A stretch of 39,294 nucleotides of DNA. Origin: a virus. A program made the translations under genes and the position numbers. The stretch lies in UHGV virus genome UHGV-0210057. The stretch is one strand, 5' to 3'. The notes under the pieces are model-generated. The model made no database searches. It was not told where the DNA came from and saw only the letters and a list, made by a program, of their open reading frames with translations. Of the stretch, positions 10,030-33,282 are shown piece by piece. Position 1 is the first letter of the stretch. Each line of letters starts with the position of its first letter.

Positions 10030-10463
10030 ACAGAGTAACCACGATTATCTCCGCTCTGGTTATCTGCATCATCGTCTGCCTGTCATGGGCTGTTAATCAT
10101 TACCGTGATAACGCCATCGCCTACAAAGAGCAGCGTGATAAGGCCGCATCCATTATCGCTGACATGCAGAAACGGCAACATGATGTAGCAGAACTCGACG
10201 CCAGATACACAAAGGAGCTTGCTGATGCTAACGCGACTATCGAAAGTCTCCGTGCTGATGTTTCTGCTGGTCGTAAACGCCTGCAAGTCGCCGCCACCTG
10301 TGCAAAGTCAACGACCGGAGCCAGCAGCATGGGCGATGGAGAAAGCCCAGGACTTACAGCAGATGCTGAACTCAATTATTACCGTCTCCGAAGTGGAATC
10401 GACAAGATAACCGCGCAGGTTAACTACCTGCAGGAATACATCAGGACGCAATGCCTGAAATAA
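10026..10463 (+). CDS. rzpD: Rz i-spanin
   Basis: 145 aa from [18 protein letters not shown] (N-terminal TM) with coiled-coil periplasmic region; ATGA overlap with the endolysin stop. Confidence 0.8.
10219..10410 (+). CDS. rzoD: Rz1 o-spanin lipoprotein, embedded in the +1 frame of Rz
   Basis: Small ORF wholly inside Rz with lipobox (LLVVNAC) and proline-rich segment ([13 protein letters not shown]); exact start codon uncertain. Confidence 0.65.
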
Positions 10464-29714: not shown

Positions 29715-30893
29715 TTACTGAAGTTTTCTTCTTGTGTATGTTAGTACATTAAATTTTTTAAACTTACTACACGGTGTCTCAATATATCTAAAACATAGCA
29801 ATGATATAAGCGTGATAAACCCAGAGAGGATTATAATAATAGCTGAAAATACAAGGCTGTTAATTTGATTAACATAGCTAACCGGAAGTATTATTTTAAA
29901 TGTTATAAAAAGTATAATGCCATGTAGAAGATACATGCTATATGTAGCTTCTCCAAAAACTTGACAGGTTTTTATCTTAAGAACTCCAAAAATATCGCAT
30001 CCATTTGATATCAGAATAAATGCAATACCACAGAGTGATATTGTTATTGGATTGTAAGGATTTGGAATTAAAAAACAAGTTACACATAAGATAACGATAA
30101 CGAATAAGCTTGATAATATTTTATTGAAAGGCAAGCTGTTAGGCAGTTTGTGATTTATTTTTGCTGCCAGATAACCAAAAACAAATGATAAAATATGTAT
30201 TTTTAATGATGGATAGAAAATAAAAGCAAATACACTCGCAATACTAAGAATTGTGTAAGTATTAAATTTGTCTCTTCTCATTATAAAAGCCATAAAAGGA
30301 AGAGATAAATAAAAAAACCATTCATAAACAAGTGACCACGGAACTCCGGCCATGATAAGCGACGTCTTGTGAAGACCGTTAACATCAGGCATTCCAAGGA
30401 AAGAAAAAGGAACCCATCTCGCCATAGATATTATGAGATTGGCAATTCCTGTGTTAATTTTCCAATCAGAAACATAGAACACAATTATGAATAGTAGAGA
30501 TAACGAAACCAGATACATAGGTGTTAGTCTCATTATTCTTGACCAAAATAAATCTTCCCAATTTACTGATTTATTCGAAATCAATTTCCCGAAGAACAAG
30601 AAGCCTGTAATCATAAAAAAGAAAATAACAGCTATTTTCCCAATATTAGTATAAAATAACGAATCAGGATCAGACCAAACTCCAGTATGTATGTATTGCC
30701 ACCAGAAACTGGAATGATGAAGGAAAACCATTAAAGCAAGAAATCCTCTAAGCCCATCAATTGATTCACTCCTTCCTTTGATAGGTGATAAGTGTGTTTC
30801 TGTGACAAATATTCTTGCAACCGAAAGTGAAGTAATCACCGATAAAGAAGCAATTAAAAAGCCATTAAATCCGTCAAACATAGAAATCTCCAT
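29715..30893 (-). CDS. Acyltransferase-3 family membrane protein (O-antigen acetyltransferase-like, Oac/OafA type)
   Basis: 392 aa, multiple TM helices, N-terminal motif R..S.DGLRGFLALMVFLHH typical of acyltransferase-3; strongly AT-rich; located between tailspike and integrase as in Sf6. Confidence 0.85.
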   Translation of the reverse strand: MEISMFDGFNGFLIASLSVITSLSVARIFVTETHLSPIKGRSESIDGLRGFLALMVFLHHSSFWWQYIHTGVWSDPDSLFYTNIGKIAVIFFFMITGFLFFGKLISNKSVNWEDLFWSRIMRLTPMYLVSLSLLFIIVFYVSDWKINTGIANLIISMARWVPFSFLGMPDVNGLHKTSLIMAGVPWSLVYEWFFYLSLPFMAFIMRRDKFNTYTILSIASVFAFIFYPSLKIHILSFVFGYLAAKINHKLPNSLPFNKILSSLFVIVILCVTCFLIPNPYNPITISLCGIAFILISNGCDIFGVLKIKTCQVFGEATYSMYLLHGIILFITFKIILPVSYVNQINSLVFSAIIIILSGFITLISLLCFRYIETPCSKFKKFNVLTYTRRKLQ

Positions 30894-31207
30894 TACCCCT
30901 GTGTTTTTTGTACAATCAAAGATTTTGTGGGCACTAAGAAAATTAGTGTATATAAACCATGCTTAAATTGCATAAATATTGAATATAGCATCGATGGCTC
31001 ACTATCCTTACGTTATCAAAAAAATGTGTATACCGTGATTATGCTTGATAATTATTTGACCGCAGTGTTGTATAGTCTACTGCTTTCTAATCTACAAGCA
31101 TCATGGCATAAATCCAGTATCTAGAACTAATAAGATTAACAATTGGATCACAAGTGATTGGCTTAGTTCACTGAGCCATGCATTGTTACCCTCTGATTAA
31201 AGATTAA

Positions 31208-32401
31208 TTACTCAGCCTTCCCATCAAGCCATTCCGCCCACCACTGCATCATTTCTCTGCGCTTATCTAGATACTGAGCATGGTTGTAAATCCCGCGCAC
31301 AGATCCGCCGTTGGCATGTGCCAGTTGCACTTCAATGGCGTCGGCAGGCCATTCGTGCTCGTTCATAATCGTGCTGAATTCATGCCTGAATCCGTGACCG
31401 CTTTCCAGCCCCTCATAGCCGATTTGTTTGATCACAAGCAATACCGCGTTCTCGCAGATTGGTTTCTTCTTATCGTTGCGCCCGGCAAAAACAAACTCTG
31501 AGACTGGTTTGGTGATTGAGCTTAGCGTAGTAAGAAGTTCAACCACCTGGTCTGACATAGGAACCACATGAATTTTGCGTCCCTTCATCACACTGGCGTC
31601 GATGGTGATAATCCTGTTTTCAAAATCGACGTTCTTCCATTGCATGGAACGAAGCTCTTTCGTTCTTAGGGCTGTGTAGCGTAAGACTTTGGTCGCAATG
31701 AGCGATACGATACTTCCTGAAAATGTTGCCAGTGCTTTGTTGAATGCAGGGATCTGGTCTGCTGGAAGAAACGGGAAGTTCTTCTTGCGGTATCCTTTCA
31801 TGGCGTCTGCAAGGTCAGGTGCCGGGTTATATTTAGCCCTTCCGGTGACAATAGCGTAACGAAAAACCTCGCCGCATCTTCTGCGGGCTTTATTGGCTCG
31901 CTCCATTGCACCGCGATCTTCAAATCTGCGGATTACTTCCAGCAGTTGCATCGGCTCAATATCCTGAATCTCAAGGCCGCCGATGATGGGTAAAATGTCG
32001 TCATCAAACATTTTTGCAAGTTCATTTGCATAGCCTACTGACCAGACTTGCTTCTTGTGCTCGTACCATTCCTTGTAAATGGCGCTAAAGGAATTGTTGT
32101 TAGACGAAGCCTTTTTCGCCTTTACCGGATCGATGCCAACCGAGATGTCTTTCCTCGCGGTCCATGCTTTATCCCTTGCCTCCTGCAAAGTCATAAGCGG
32201 ATATTTTCCGACAGTCAGGATTTTCTCCTTACCGTCAATCTTGTAGCGAAGCTGCCATACCTTTTTCCCTGATACAGGGACATAAAGGTACAGGCCATTA
32301 CCATCGAGAAGGCGGTATGGTTTTTCTTTCGGCTTTGCTGCTTCAATCTGCTTAACGGTGAGCATGGGTAAAAATCCGGTGGGTAAAATTATTTTATCCA
32401 C
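31208..32401 (-). CDS. int: Tyrosine integrase, P4-type (N-terminal DUF4102-like arm-binding domain)
   Basis: 397 aa; N-terminal LTVKQIEAAKPKEKPYRLLDGNGLYLYV..GKKVWQLRY motif, C-terminal catalytic region (HGFRHEF...LAHA......Y). Confidence 0.9.
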   Translation of the reverse strand: MDKIILPTGFLPMLTVKQIEAAKPKEKPYRLLDGNGLYLYVPVSGKKVWQLRYKIDGKEKILTVGKYPLMTLQEARDKAWTARKDISVGIDPVKAKKASSNNNSFSAIYKEWYEHKKQVWSVGYANELAKMFDDDILPIIGGLEIQDIEPMQLLEVIRRFEDRGAMERANKARRRCGEVFRYAIVTGRAKYNPAPDLADAMKGYRKKNFPFLPADQIPAFNKALATFSGSIVSLIATKVLRYTALRTKELRSMQWKNVDFENRIITIDASVMKGRKIHVVPMSDQVVELLTTLSSITKPVSEFVFAGRNDKKKPICENAVLLVIKQIGYEGLESGHGFRHEFSTIMNEHEWPADAIEVQLAHANGGSVRGIYNHAQYLDKRREMMQWWAEWLDGKAE

Positions 32402-32526
32402 TTTTTACCCGTCATGGAGTGCGGCTGTCAACGATCTGACGCGAACCATTACGAACTGTTAATCTACGGAAGACTTGATATTCAGGGGATTTTACGGACT
32501 GGTACGGATGGGAGCGAACTGATAAA

Positions 32527-32541
32527 TGGTGTCCCCTGCAG
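32527..32541 (-). other. Candidate attP core resembling a tRNA 3' end (argW-like)
   Basis: Minus strand reads CTGCAGGGGACACCA (acceptor-stem 3' strand, discriminator and CCA), matching my recollection of the argW tRNA-Arg(CCU) 3' end; lies in the 213-bp gap between alpA and int. Confidence 0.5.
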
Positions 32542-32614
32542 ACATCTACTTGAAGCAGCAGGGGATTGATTGGAATGGTGTTTTTTAGATGTGAAAAATA
32601 TTTTACCCGCTATT

Positions 32615-32815
32615 TTACCCATTGGCGCGGCTTAAGAGCTTATTTTTGAACTCACAATGGTCACGATATAACCATCTTGCTCGCCCGTGGATAACTTTGG
32701 CTTTAGGCAGGTCGCCGGACTTAATCCGGTCATAGATGAAGGTTTTACCAAAGCCAGTATCAGCCATGATGAATTTCAAATCAACCAGGGAATCAGGCTG
32801 TAGTTCGTGTTGCAT
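32615..32815 (-). CDS. alpA: AlpA-family excisionase / transcriptional regulator
   Basis: 66 aa with HTH motif LKFIMADTGFGKTFIYDRIKSGDLPKAKVIHGRARW typical of AlpA/Xis; immediately upstream of int on the same strand. Confidence 0.8.
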   Translation of the reverse strand: MQHELQPDSLVDLKFIMADTGFGKTFIYDRIKSGDLPKAKVIHGRARWLYRDHCEFKNKLLSRANG

Positions 32816-32833
32816 GAGTGCTATCTCCGAATA

Positions 32834-32849
32834 GGGAATCGAACCTGCA
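32834..32849 (-). other. tRNA T-arm-like fragment (degenerate att-related repeat?)
   Basis: Minus strand reads TTGCAGGTTCGATTCC (T-loop consensus GGTTCGATTCC); the 3' half of the T-stem is not complementary, so it is not a functional tRNA. Confidence 0.35.
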
Positions 32850-32857
32850 AATCAGGC

Positions 32858-32880
32858 AATAAAAAACCGCATTGATGCGG
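32858..32880 (-). terminator. Intrinsic terminator separating the early-left operon from alpA-int
   Basis: CCGCA-TTGA-TGCGG hairpin, followed on the minus strand by TTTTTT. Confidence 0.5.
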
Positions 32881-32937
32881 CGATGGTAGGTCTGGATATC
32901 TTGAGAAATGAACTGGCCTCATCGAGTGTGAGGCGGG

Positions 32938-33282
32938 TTAGTCCTTGCGTAGCTCGCTGATTCTTCTGTAAGTCTCTGGTGCTTTGTTCCCGTACGTCTT
33001 CATTTCAGACTTCAACAGAGCAACGAGGGAATCCCATTCGTTGAGGATGCCTTTGAATGCCGGAACGCGCTTTGCAACCTTGTCGAATGAATCCCTGATT
33101 TCTGGAATCTGCTCGACAAGCGCAACGCATCGCCGGAAGTCTGCTGCGTCATGGGGAGCGCCGAAGTGATGACCATAGATATTCTTTTTCAGTCCACATG
33201 CGATTGAGGCAAGAGTTGCGCTACTGATGCCAACATCGCCAGTCGATTGCCATTTCAAAACCTTCATAGCCAAATCTGACAT
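32938..33282 (-). CDS. Hypothetical protein
   Basis: 114-aa ORF with GGAG RBS; preceded by a terminator hairpin (GCCGCC..GGCGG plus T7); no family recognised. Confidence 0.5.
   Translation of the reverse strand: MSDLAMKVLKWQSTGDVGISSATLASIACGLKKNIYGHHFGAPHDAADFRRCVALVEQIPEIRDSFDKVAKRVPAFKGILNEWDSLVALLKSEMKTYGNKAPETYRRISELRKD

Follow-up and report, generated by a model that had tools for sequence, protein, structure and literature searches.

Two short tRNA-like sequences lie on either side of a small gene of excisionase type in the window (the whole stretch of phage DNA that was analysed, 39,294 nt), one of them next to the integrase gene. The locus raises the question of which of them, if either, is the site at which the phage recombines with its host, and of what the other one is doing there. 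An earlier note, made from the letters of the sequence, had proposed the first as the core of an attP for integration at the tRNA gene argW, and the second as a possible degenerate att relic. Our results indicate with high confidence that positions 32366-32881 comprise the attP and regulatory region of a recombination module of the KplE1/HK620/Sf6 type, carried by a P22-like phage (Lederbergvirus). The features that define such a module were found, namely a 16-nt argW core, an IntS-type integrase, the gene order RDF-attP-int (RDF, recombination directionality factor), TorI and TAAA motifs, and prophage junctions together with an empty site, and nothing substantial speaks against the assignment.

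The attP at 32526-32541 is in itself nothing new, as it is already known, characterised and experimentally studied, the core, the protein-binding map and the regulation having been published for KplE1, HK620, Sf6 and Kapi1. The call is useful for annotating this phage, because it places integration at argW and the int, O-antigen acetylase and tailspike genes beside the tRNA. The remaining interest of the region lies in the second sequence, a conserved copy of the argW T-loop in the leader of torI, since torI expression is the least understood part of an otherwise well-studied module.

Two fragments of argW and the attP core

The minus strand at 32541-32527 reads CTGCAGGGGACACCA (fragment 1). 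In the genome of E. coli K-12 the argW gene ends in ...TTGCAGGTTCGATTCCTGCAGGGGACACCA (L005 810-884), and fragment 1 is therefore argW gene nt 61-75, an exact match, as the earlier note had proposed. Adding the next T (32526) gives the 16-nt sequence CTGCAGGGGACACCAT (32526..32541, minus strand; argW nt 61-75 plus one base), which has a single exact match, with 0 mismatches, in the whole window, and which was published as the core of the KplE1/HK620/Sf6 recombination module (PMC2951348). The 'attP core' of HK620 (1368-1383) and the integration site of Sf6 (18099-18114) map to window positions 32526-32541, and the GenBank records of Kapi1 and CUS-3 start or finish at this core, so that the published annotations of the four phages lead to the same 16-17 nt.

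The second sequence (fragment 2, TTGCAGGTTCGATTCC; 32835..32850, minus strand) reproduces argW nt 46-61 exactly. The earlier note had described it correctly, although one base off, at 32849-32834 instead of 32850-32835. It comprises the end of the variable loop, the 5' strand of the T-stem, the T-loop and the two first bases of the 3' strand of the T-stem, that is, the stretch of argW directly next to the core in the tRNA. Its T-loop is followed by CCCTA in place of the CCTGC of argW, and because of this replacement only two of the five T-stem pairs are possible; the statement that it cannot form a T-stem thus holds. Fragments 1 and 2 are the top two argW matches in the 39.3-kb window (blastn-short, E 5e-4 and 2e-3), and they lie on one strand and in tRNA order, with 292-293 nt between them and an overlap of argW nt 61 alone. 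An exact match to a given 16-mer is expected by chance in the window about 2x10^-5 times (2 x 39,279 / 4^16). A third argW match, of 11 nt (ATTCCTGCAGG, 10427-10437, E 0.49), was taken as chance. ARAGORN detected 0 tRNA genes in the window and a search of 32300-33000 against Rfam (E<=10) rendered nothing tRNA-like, so neither fragment belongs to a complete tRNA cloverleaf, as had been anticipated.

On the P-arm side of the core (32542..32565, minus strand) there is a degenerate T-loop-like sequence, AGTAGATGT in the window and ATTCGATGT(A/C) in most relatives, as well as an 8-nt inverted copy of part of the core (TCCCCTGC, 32558-32565, against GCAGGGGA, 32532-32539). This inverted repeat co-varies with the core, being CCCCTACA/TGTAGGGG in the relative L104 and TCCCTGCA/TGCAGGGA in L105. 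We infer that the T-loop-like stretch may act as the left half-site of the core. The crossover must take place inside the 16-nt core, and probably within TGCAGGG, which is flanked by the imperfect inverted repeats GATGTC and GACACC.

Prophage junctions and the integrated state

Matches to the region were found in 2,234 of 5,426 complete E. coli genomes, mostly at two places in each, and the junctions were read in a spread sample of 60 records. In this sample, of the matches that break off inside the att region, those on the torI side begin at query 226-228, that is, at 32525-32527, at the right end of the prophage, and those at the left end finish at query 242, that is, at 32541, with intS and tRNA-Arg annotated beneath. 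A synthetic empty site, in which the K-12 left flank runs directly into the right one, is uninterrupted in 911 genomes (100% identical in the eight records listed), and excising everything between both copies of the core restores this empty site exactly. The search for attL and attR junctions with this core in lysogens, suggested beforehand as a check, therefore agrees with the HK620 and Sf6 annotations in identifying the core as attP. No prophage junction was found at fragment 2 among the sampled matches from the 2,234 genomes, and for this reason fragment 2 is not an att site.

Experimental work on close relatives points in the same direction. Deletion of attB abolishes integration of Kapi1 at the argW site (PMC8787464), recombination activity has been demonstrated for the near-identical KplE1, HK620 and Kapi1 systems (PMC2951348, PMC8787464), and in vitro recombination of the KplE1-type module has been published (PMC2951348). 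It is established for modules of this type that the IntS-type integrase recombines the core (32526-32541 in the window) with the identical 3' end of the host argW and, since the phage core takes the place of the last 15 nt of the tRNA, argW stays intact. In the integrated state int, the O-antigen acetylase and the tailspike gene adjoin argW at attL, and torI is located at the far end, at attR, beside the displaced 15-nt fragment of argW. That int and the acetylase are left beside the tRNA as in CPS-53/KplE1, as had been proposed, is in line with the argW-core-intS arrangement of K-12.

Integrase and arm sites

The integrase gene (31208..32365, minus strand) encodes, according to Pfam and tblastn results, an ortholog of IntS, a P4-type tyrosine recombinase. 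The Arm-DNA-bind_3, Phage_int_M and Phage_integrase domains all score above the Pfam cut-offs, and identity is 98-99% to the integrases of Sf6, CUS-3 and IME10 and 34.6% to P4 Int (tblastn). The earlier note was right in assigning integration at argW to a P4-type integrase. The int frame is open as far as a GTG at 32401; the ATG at 32365 serves as the start in the HK620 and K-12 records.

By homology to KplE1 it can be considered established that the int promoter, five TorI pentamers and IntS arm sites of the TAAA type are located in the P' arm, and two further IntS arm sites in the P arm, within the 3' end of torI. The P' repeats (32366..32409, minus strand) are GGTAAAA at 32403-32409, GATAAAA at 32392-32398 and the inverted TTTTACC at 32382-32388 and 32367-32373; they overlap the int promoter and are presumed to be IntS arm-type sites, TAAA being common to such P' sites and P'1 overlapping the -10 box (PMC2951348). 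The -35 box of the int promoter, assigned by homology to KplE1, is TTGACA at 32426-32431 (minus strand). The five TorI-type pentamers (32432..32519, minus strand) correspond to sites I5 to I1 of the KplE1 attL and read GATCG (32432-32436), GTTCG (32442-32446), GTTCG (32452-32456), GTCCG (32495-32499) and GTTCG (32515-32519), and TorI sites of the forms GTTCG, GATCG and GTCCG have been described as lying beside the -35 box in two blocks, one of two sites and the other of three (PMC2951348). In the P arm, two direct GGTAAAA repeats (32601..32619, minus strand), equivalent to the attP repeat of the HK620 record (1441-1463), would be the IntS arm-type P sites. As sequence motifs, TorI pentamers and TAAA sites thus occur at the positions expected. 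An assignment of CAGTTCG to Int arm sites and of GGGTAAAA to RDF sites was discarded, as it is the wrong way round according to PMC2951348.

A 46-codon ORF (32482..32622, minus strand), homologous to hkaB of HK620 and to gene 17 of Sf6, both annotated in the respective records, rendered no Pfam or NCBIfam match. Since it crosses the core, integration cuts it in two, and it is doubtful as a real gene.

torI and its leader

The gene between the two fragments (32615..32815, minus strand) had been labelled 'alpA', a name that our results do not sustain. Its product is 100% identical to HkaC of HK620, gp18 of Sf6 and the Kapi1 protein, and it matches the 'Tor inhibition protein' of PDB 1Z4H over its full length (E 6.6e-43). 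The score against the AlpA family (PF05930, Phage_AlpA) is below threshold (12.7 bits, E 0.12; cut-off 21), as is that against HTH_17 (16.9 bits; cut-off 27). The gene works like an RDF of the AlpA/Xis type and its proper name is torI (hkaC in HK620), encoding the excisionase TorI; that excision requires TorI is established for modules of this type. The description 'AlpA family transcriptional regulator' is still used for close TorI homologs in some RefSeq records (e.g. H193).

On the minus strand, an intrinsic-terminator-like hairpin followed by a T-run (GCCGCATCAATGCGG TTTTTT, 32861..32881) lies directly 5' of the torI leader. The leader contains a direct repeat resembling a cII box (TTGCCTGATTTGC, TTGC-N5-TTGC, 32847..32859), which overlaps the 5' end of fragment 2, and a near-pentamer (ATTCGGAG, 32825-32832) located 12 nt 3' of the GTTCG of fragment 2, which overlaps the ribosome-binding site of torI (GGAGATAG, 32821-32828). 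The site equivalent to this near-pentamer is GTTCGGAG in L097 and L106 and GTCCGGAG in L105, and a second pentamer 12 nt downstream, on the ribosome-binding site, is present in several lineages.

Homology to HK022-type phages starts at the cII-like box (query 548), which matches by position TTGCGTGTAATTGC, placed likewise 5' of the xis start of HK022. We take the latter to be the cII box of a lambda-type pI promoter, although the HK022 record carries no such annotation. The HK620 record annotates 'cII protein' binding at 1689-1701 and a 'phage integration' promoter at 1664-1702, whose equivalents in the window cover the cII-like box and fragment 2. A promoter of pI type has TTGC-N6-TTGC straddling the -35 region, a weak -10 box ca. 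13 nt downstream and a start that bypasses the start codon of the excisionase gene. TATTCG lies 13 nt downstream of the box in the window, where the spacing is N5 as against N6. A consensus scan detected no sigma-70-like promoter in the region of fragment 2, and the cII-like box is missing in non-lambdoid relatives that still have GTTCGATTCC. Rho-dependent termination was reportedly implicated in torI control by Menouni in 2013. The torI promoter has been termed 'non-characterized' (PMC2951348).

Comparison with related modules

The closest counterpart in a bacterial chromosome is KplE1 (CPS-53) of E. coli K-12, which has the same 16-nt core, an identical TorI and an IntS-type integrase. Identity to the K-12 attR is 97.2% for the P arm plus core of the window, and identity to the K-12 attL is 96.6%, over 179 nt, for the core plus P' arm. 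The int promoter, the TorI pentamers and the TAAA arm sites are laid out in the same way, and fragment 2 is likewise present 5' of torI. In K-12 one end of CPS-53 reads argW-core-intS and the opposite end torI-core, KplE1 being a 10-kb defective prophage with gtr-type genes beside intS. The window, in contrast, is an intact P22-like phage genome in which both sites are joined as attP and an O-acetylase gene lies beside int. Moreover, K-12 has degraded versions of the terminator and of the first TTGC (TTAC) in the cII-like box, unlike the window.

HK620 (AF335538) and Sf6 (AF547987) show 97.5-97.9% identity over window positions 32300-32870 and the same order hkaC(torI)-hkaB-attP-int. This homology stops at 32870, beyond which the window looks like HK022-type sequence, as in ordinary lambdoid mosaicism, and the conversion and tailspike genes beside int differ from those of the window. 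The satellite phage P4 (int and attP, leuX), prototype of the integrase family, shares with the window the architecture of the integrase, at the low identity given above, and an att site made of a tRNA 3' end upstream of int and oriented as int, whereas its target tRNA differs from argW.

On the other hand, the xis-int region of lambda and HK022, with its cII-dependent pI, is positionally homologous to the window in the terminator, in the sequence preceding it and in the TTGC...TTGC box, which is located directly 5' of the excisionase start codon in both. The spacing within the box is N6 in HK022 and N5 in the window, HK022 lacks the tRNA-like box, and the excisionase and integrase families of lambda and HK022 have no sequence-level relation to those of the window. 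The order in lambda is xis-int-attP, with attP past int, whereas here attP lies between both genes, a difference that the earlier note had pointed out and that is also stated in the literature (PMC8787464, PMC2951348).

A conserved argW T-loop copy upstream of torI

In eight lineages the core of fragment 2, GTTCGATT, does not vary (8 of 8) at positions -29 to -22 relative to the torI ATG, while its flanks do; the excisionases of these lineages are just 36-88% identical and the flanks are unalignable. The box is found in the same register of torI leaders in elements of Escherichia, Enterobacter, Citrobacter, Pantoea, Serratia, Edwardsiella, Erwinia and Salmonella, and it is missing from ca. 10 of ca. 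22 lineages. Its diversity is about tenfold below that of the third-codon sites of torI, as estimated from 44 haplotypes, which are related sequences with few variable sites. GTTCGATT contains GTTCG, an experimentally defined TorI-binding pentamer (PMC2951348). One GTTCG is expected by chance within a few hundred bases.

The TorI-family RDFs found in phage records, in IMG/VR and in one genome per species all go with an argW-type core; the first IMG/VR scan yielded 100%-identical copies only. Relatives of the integrase fall from 60% to 38% identity with none between, and those of VW-6S, YeP4, S1 and vB_AbaSI_5 (33-38%) are encoded without a comparable RDF-attP-int layout and without the T-loop box. 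In F116-type Pseudomonas phages RDF and int are convergent. A pattern scan of IMG/VR for box, Shine-Dalgarno sequence and ATG was unspecific, 45 of the 120 matches being ordinary tRNA 3' ends.

We read fragment 2 as a putative cis-regulatory element for torI expression, located in the stretch of ca. 50 nt between the intrinsic terminator and the torI start codon. An exact 16-mer together with conservation at a fixed distance in distant relatives is more in keeping with a functional element than with a relic. It is probably tRNA-derived in origin and would now be kept because it controls torI expression. Its most likely mode of action is as a candidate operator for TorI, possibly also contacted by the core-binding domain of IntS, because the box repeats the T-loop half of attB; a further possibility is that it forms part of the cII-type integration promoter placed here by the HK620 annotators. 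Against a regulatory role speak the lineages without the box, the negative promoter scan, the chance expectation of a single GTTCG and the few variable sites and related sequences behind the low polymorphism. Moreover, the Erwinia phage phiEt88, which has the box but GTWAC instead of GTTCG as its presumed RDF sites, is a poor fit to a pure TorI operator. We put forward only tentatively, as a possibility derived from sequence comparison, that the box in the torI leader is an exapted copy of the T-loop half of attB, working as a tRNA-mimicking operator for TorI (through GTTCG) and possibly for the core-binding domain of IntS. If this were true, the torI leader would be bound by the very proteins that read argW T-loop DNA in recombination, and the amount of excisionase made would depend on what state the recombination machinery is in. 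The box is kept across enterobacterial argW-targeting modules, lambdoid or not. In any case, a box of 10-13 nt with a TorI pentamer between terminator and ribosome-binding site is a candidate control point of torI that can be tested cheaply.

The proposal of the earlier note, that fragment 2 is a decaying relic, probably does not apply. It could be imagined that an ancestral attP had argW nt 46-75 or more, that a torI cassette was inserted at nt 61 and that the displaced part is now functionless, an explanation that we consider unlikely even though the fragments, placed end to end, cover this part of argW exactly with an overlap of nt 61 only, keep the tRNA order and lie on one strand, and the spacer of 292 bp barely exceeds torI plus its leader. 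The sequence left of the core is already a degenerate T-loop, with ATTCGATGT(A/C) before TGCAGGG in most lineages as against GTTCGATTCC in the tRNA, and because of this the simple insertion of torI into a 30-nt tRNA segment was set aside. Moreover, the invariance of the box at a fixed distance from the start codon, among such divergent RDFs and flanks, and a polymorphism below that of synonymous sites are not what a relic would show. A tRNA-derived origin is possible, but the data argue against lack of function.

It is less probable still that fragment 2 works as RNA, GGUU..AUUCC of a read-through transcript pairing with GGAGAU..AACC and so hiding the torI ribosome-binding site. RNAalifold predicts a 9-pair hairpin across 11 leaders, the L100 variant ATTTCC would pair perfectly with GGAGAT (z = -3.15), and ATTCC would pair perfectly with GGAGT in L102 and phiEt88. 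However, none of the pairs shows a compensatory change in the 11 leaders, z-scores are mostly -0.2 to -1.7, and the leader of the window itself is predicted to fold another way (z = -0.18). Such pairing would also account for ATTCC but not for the conservation of CAGGTTCG.

That fragment 2 is a second, alternative att site for crossover by the integrase is very improbable and has been largely refuted. Its 16 nt are identical to the stretch of argW that adjoins the core, and integrases of the P4 family often use the T-loop, but among the sampled matches from the 2,234 genomes the breaks near it (query 548 and 571) border other phage sequence and not host DNA, it has neither a flanking inverted repeat nor arm sites of its own, and integration at this position would truncate argW. 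Finally, a true attP elsewhere, for instance in the oac-int gap at 30894-31207 in a lambda-like int-attP layout, with the tRNA-like core a coincidence, can practically be discounted, given that no point in its support was found, that the breakpoints in the sampled lysogens and in prophage-derived phage records are at the core, and that removing the DNA between the core copies reconstitutes the empty site exactly.

Two argW fragments in the torI-int region

On the minus strand, 32541-32527 has the sequence CTGCAGGGGACACCA, which the earlier note gave correctly and which together with the next base yields CTGCAGGGGACACCAT; this longer sequence occurs once in the window, with no mismatches. For comparison, the tRNA-Arg gene argW was taken from the E. 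coli K-12 genome (locus L005, 810-884); it is 75 nt long and its 3' end is TTGCAGGTTCGATTCCTGCAGGGGACACCA, so that this first fragment corresponds to argW nt 61-75. The second fragment, TTGCAGGTTCGATTCC, is identical to argW nt 46-61 and lies at 32850-32835, one base away from the 32849-32834 previously assigned to this otherwise correct sequence. Both are the best two argW matches in the full window (E 5e-4 and 2e-3), lie 293 nt apart on the same strand and in tRNA order, and are confirmed as real, well beyond chance. Neither is part of a complete tRNA, since a tRNA gene search of the window and an Rfam search of 32300-33000 detected no tRNA gene. At 10427-10437 (minus strand), a further 11 nt, ATTCCTGCAGG, match argW nt 57-67 exactly; in the tRNA this stretch bridges both fragments, and the match (E 0.49) is most likely due to chance.

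Integration at argW

Fragment 1 is, with high confidence, the attP core of the window phage. The 701 nt around it are 97-98% identical to HK620, Sf6, IME10, HF4s, HK633, N7 and others, and the features annotated as 'attP core' in HK620 (1368-1383) and as 'phage Sf6 integration site ... attP core' in Sf6 (18099-18114) both map to 32526-32541. The Kapi1 record begins at the site, with a 17-nt recombination feature that maps to 32525-32541, and the prophage-derived CUS-3 record terminates at an 'attL core' equivalent to 32541. The defective K-12 prophage CPS-53/KplE1 starts inside argW, followed by the P' arm and intS, and its other end reads torI-core-dsdC, where pawZ, a 15-nt argW pseudogene fragment, is annotated. 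Identity of the window to K-12 is 97.2% over 360 nt for P arm plus core (attR) and 96.6% over 179 nt for core plus P' arm (attL).

A match to the att region was found in 2,234 of 5,426 complete E. coli genomes, at a median of two places per genome. Breakpoints were read from the top 30 matches and an even sample of 60 records: the sampled matches either begin at query 226-228 (32525-32527 in the window, on the torI side) or stop at query 242 (32541), the latter with 'intS | tRNA-Arg' annotated underneath. A synthetic empty site of 600 nt, in which the K-12 flank left of attL is fused to the flank right of attR, occurs unbroken in 911 genomes, where it lies between yfdC and dsdC; the eight listed records match it at 100% identity. 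The phage annotations, the breaks of homology at the core and the empty sites thus sustain the proposal of an attP at argW, and the tRNA-Arg gene underlying the intS-side junctions agrees with int and the acetylase being left next to the tRNA, as in CPS-53/KplE1. This attP is an already known, experimentally characterised feature. HK620, Sf6 and CUS-3 all carry the conserved module, of which CTGCAGGGGACACCAT is the published core, and an in vitro excision reaction has been reconstituted from IntS, TorI and IHF (PMC2951348, PMC3509656); in Kapi1, attP lies between int and xis, and deletion of attB abolished integration at this site (PMC8787464).

An uninterrupted torI-attP-int junction is present in 17 E. 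coli genomes, including NZ_CP100950.1, NZ_CM135826.1 and NZ_CP100996.1. In some it lies on the chromosome, with separate attL-type and attR-type places, as expected for tandem argW prophages; in others it lies on circular contigs of roughly 39 kb, probably phage DNA assembled as a replicon. Enterobacterial-type torI-attR sequences also appear in two metagenomic contigs, labelled Actinomycetes (L098, JAEWEJ010000341.1) and Parachlamydiaceae (L112, JBKEAL010000209.1), with TorI 85-92% identical and, in L098, an argW-type core; both look like mis-binned or contaminant contigs.

The recombination module and its neighbourhood

As a whole, the window is the mosaic genome of a P22-like phage (Lederbergvirus), with 96-97% identity to HK620 and Sf6 in its head and DNA-packaging genes. 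Between the tailspike gene (27319-29655, plus strand) and int lies a gene for a 392-aa membrane O-antigen acyltransferase (29715-30893, minus strand; Pfam Acyl_transf_3), in the position of the oac O-antigen acetylase gene of Sf6, and for this reason the phage is probably serotype-converting. The integrase (31208-32365, minus strand) is of the P4 type, as previously proposed: it has the Arm-DNA-bind_3, Phage_int_M and Phage_integrase domains (Pfam) and shares 98-99% identity with the integrases of Sf6, CUS-3 and IME10 and 34.6% with P4 Int. The 66-codon gene at 32615-32815 (minus strand) encodes TorI/HkaC, 100% identical to the HK620, Sf6 and Kapi1 proteins, with a full-length match to PDB 1Z4H ('Tor inhibition protein'). 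Its former label, alpA, fits its role but not its family, since it scores 12.7 bits against Pfam AlpA, below the threshold of 21. A 46-codon frame at 32482-32622 (minus strand), homologous to hkaB/Sf6 gene 17, is an annotated CDS in the HK620 and Sf6 records; it lacks any family match and, because it spans the attP core, integration cuts it in two. It is probably not a real gene.

In attL, TorI binds GTTCG, GATCG and GTCCG, which form two blocks, one of two sites and one of three, beside the -35 box of the intS promoter, and TAAA is common to the IntS arm-type sites (Panis et al. 2010, PMC2951348). The window shows this layout too, with a TTGACA int promoter -35 box (32426-32431), five TorI-type pentamers (32432-32436, 32442-32446, 32452-32456, 32495-32499 and 32515-32519) and TAAA repeats in the P' arm (32367-32409) and in the P arm (32601-32619), inside the end of torI. 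Given this layout, the mechanism would be the established one: IntS would recombine the core of the phage with its identical counterpart in the host, the phage supplying the last 15 nt of argW; int and torI would then lie at opposite prophage ends, with the int promoter inside attL, controlled by IntS and TorI. Strand exchange, we infer, may take place in TGCAGGG, between the imperfect inverted repeats GATGTC and GACACC, which are perfect (GGTGTC/GACACC) in Erwinia phage 49. An additional 8-nt inverted repeat on the minus strand, TCCCCTGC (32558-32565) and GCAGGGGA (32532-32539), separated by 18 nt, flanks the left half-site of the core and varies in step with the core in two relatives (L104, CCCCTACA/TGTAGGGG; L105, TCCCTGCA/TGCAGGGA), which suggests a functional extra integrase site or DNA structure.

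A conserved box upstream of torI

Fragment 2 is the sole part of the locus without an existing explanation, a modest, testable loose end in an otherwise known module. On one side of it lies an intrinsic-terminator-like hairpin (32861-32881), on the other the ribosome-binding site of torI (32821-32828). The box is also found upstream of torI in K-12 and ahead of the RDF genes of Erwinia phage Midgardsormr38 (as a tandem pair spaced by 16 nt, L006 2459-2490, CAGGTTCGATTCCCGTCAGGTTCGATTCCC), Salmonella phage Emek and many relatives, Erwinia phage phiEt88, and prophages of Enterobacter, Citrobacter, Serratia, Pantoea and Edwardsiella. In these relatives the RDFs are 36-88% identical to TorI and the flanking DNA is unalignable, yet the eight lineages sharing the register all have GTTCGATT unchanged, at positions -29 to -22 relative to the start codon. 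In a set of 44 E. coli-type haplotypes, 2 sites of the 16-mer vary (3 minor-haplotype counts), against 20 (127 counts) among the 67 third-codon positions of torI. The box is wholly absent from about ten of the lineages whose RDF leaders were compared, and is therefore dispensable in some contexts.

Fragment 2 is slightly more likely than not to regulate torI expression in cis, and the most probable form of such an element is an operator bound by a protein. Four leads bear on its role, none of them decisive. It contains the TorI pentamer GTTCG, and the ribosome-binding site holds another pentamer 12 nt further downstream (window, ATTCGGAG; relatives L097 and L106, GTTCGGAG; L105, GTCCGGAG), which suggests a TorI operator and autoregulation; against this, phiEt88 retains the box though its presumed RDF sites are GTWAC. 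Fragment 2 also reproduces the T-loop side of attB exactly, and might act as a copy of the attB half-site that every integrase of the family must recognise, which would explain why the box is invariant while arm and RDF sites differ. It might instead be part of an integration promoter: the HK620 record places a 'phage integration' promoter dependent on cII, along with a cII box, at this position, and HK022 has, directly upstream of xis and in a position homologous to the cII-box region of the window, a TTGC-N6-TTGC box that we take to be a lambda-type pI. The TTGC repeat is missing from non-lambdoid relatives that keep the fragment 2 box, and a consensus scan found no promoter at fragment 2. 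Finally, it might form an anti-Shine-Dalgarno hairpin. Structure prediction gives one for several lineages, though the z-scores are weak and no covariation is seen, and none for the leader of the window itself.

It is unlikely that fragment 2 is a functionless relic. The degenerate att relic suggested in the earlier note agrees poorly with its exact identity to argW, the invariance of GTTCGATT in eight lineages and the few variable sites; the box is probably not a decaying sequence. A simple splitting of attP by insertion of torI does not fit, as the attP sequence directly left of the core is, in most lineages, itself a degenerate T-loop (ATTCGATGT(A/C)|TGCAGGG vs GTTCGATTCC|TGCAGGG in the tRNA). 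All TorI-family RDFs found in phage records, IMG/VR and one genome per species target an argW-type core; the P4-type integrase loci inspected at greater distance are laid out differently. A role as an att site is very unlikely, since no host junction falls at fragment 2 among the sampled E. coli matches and the breaks of homology nearby (query 548 and 571) are borders between phage modules.

A mosaic junction is visible at 32847-32870, where HK022-type homology begins at 32847 and Sf6/HK620 homology ends at 32870. The overlap of 24 nt (the terminator T-run plus TTATTGCCTGATTTGC) corresponds to the upstream end of the 'boundary sequence bsq2' of the Sf6 record.
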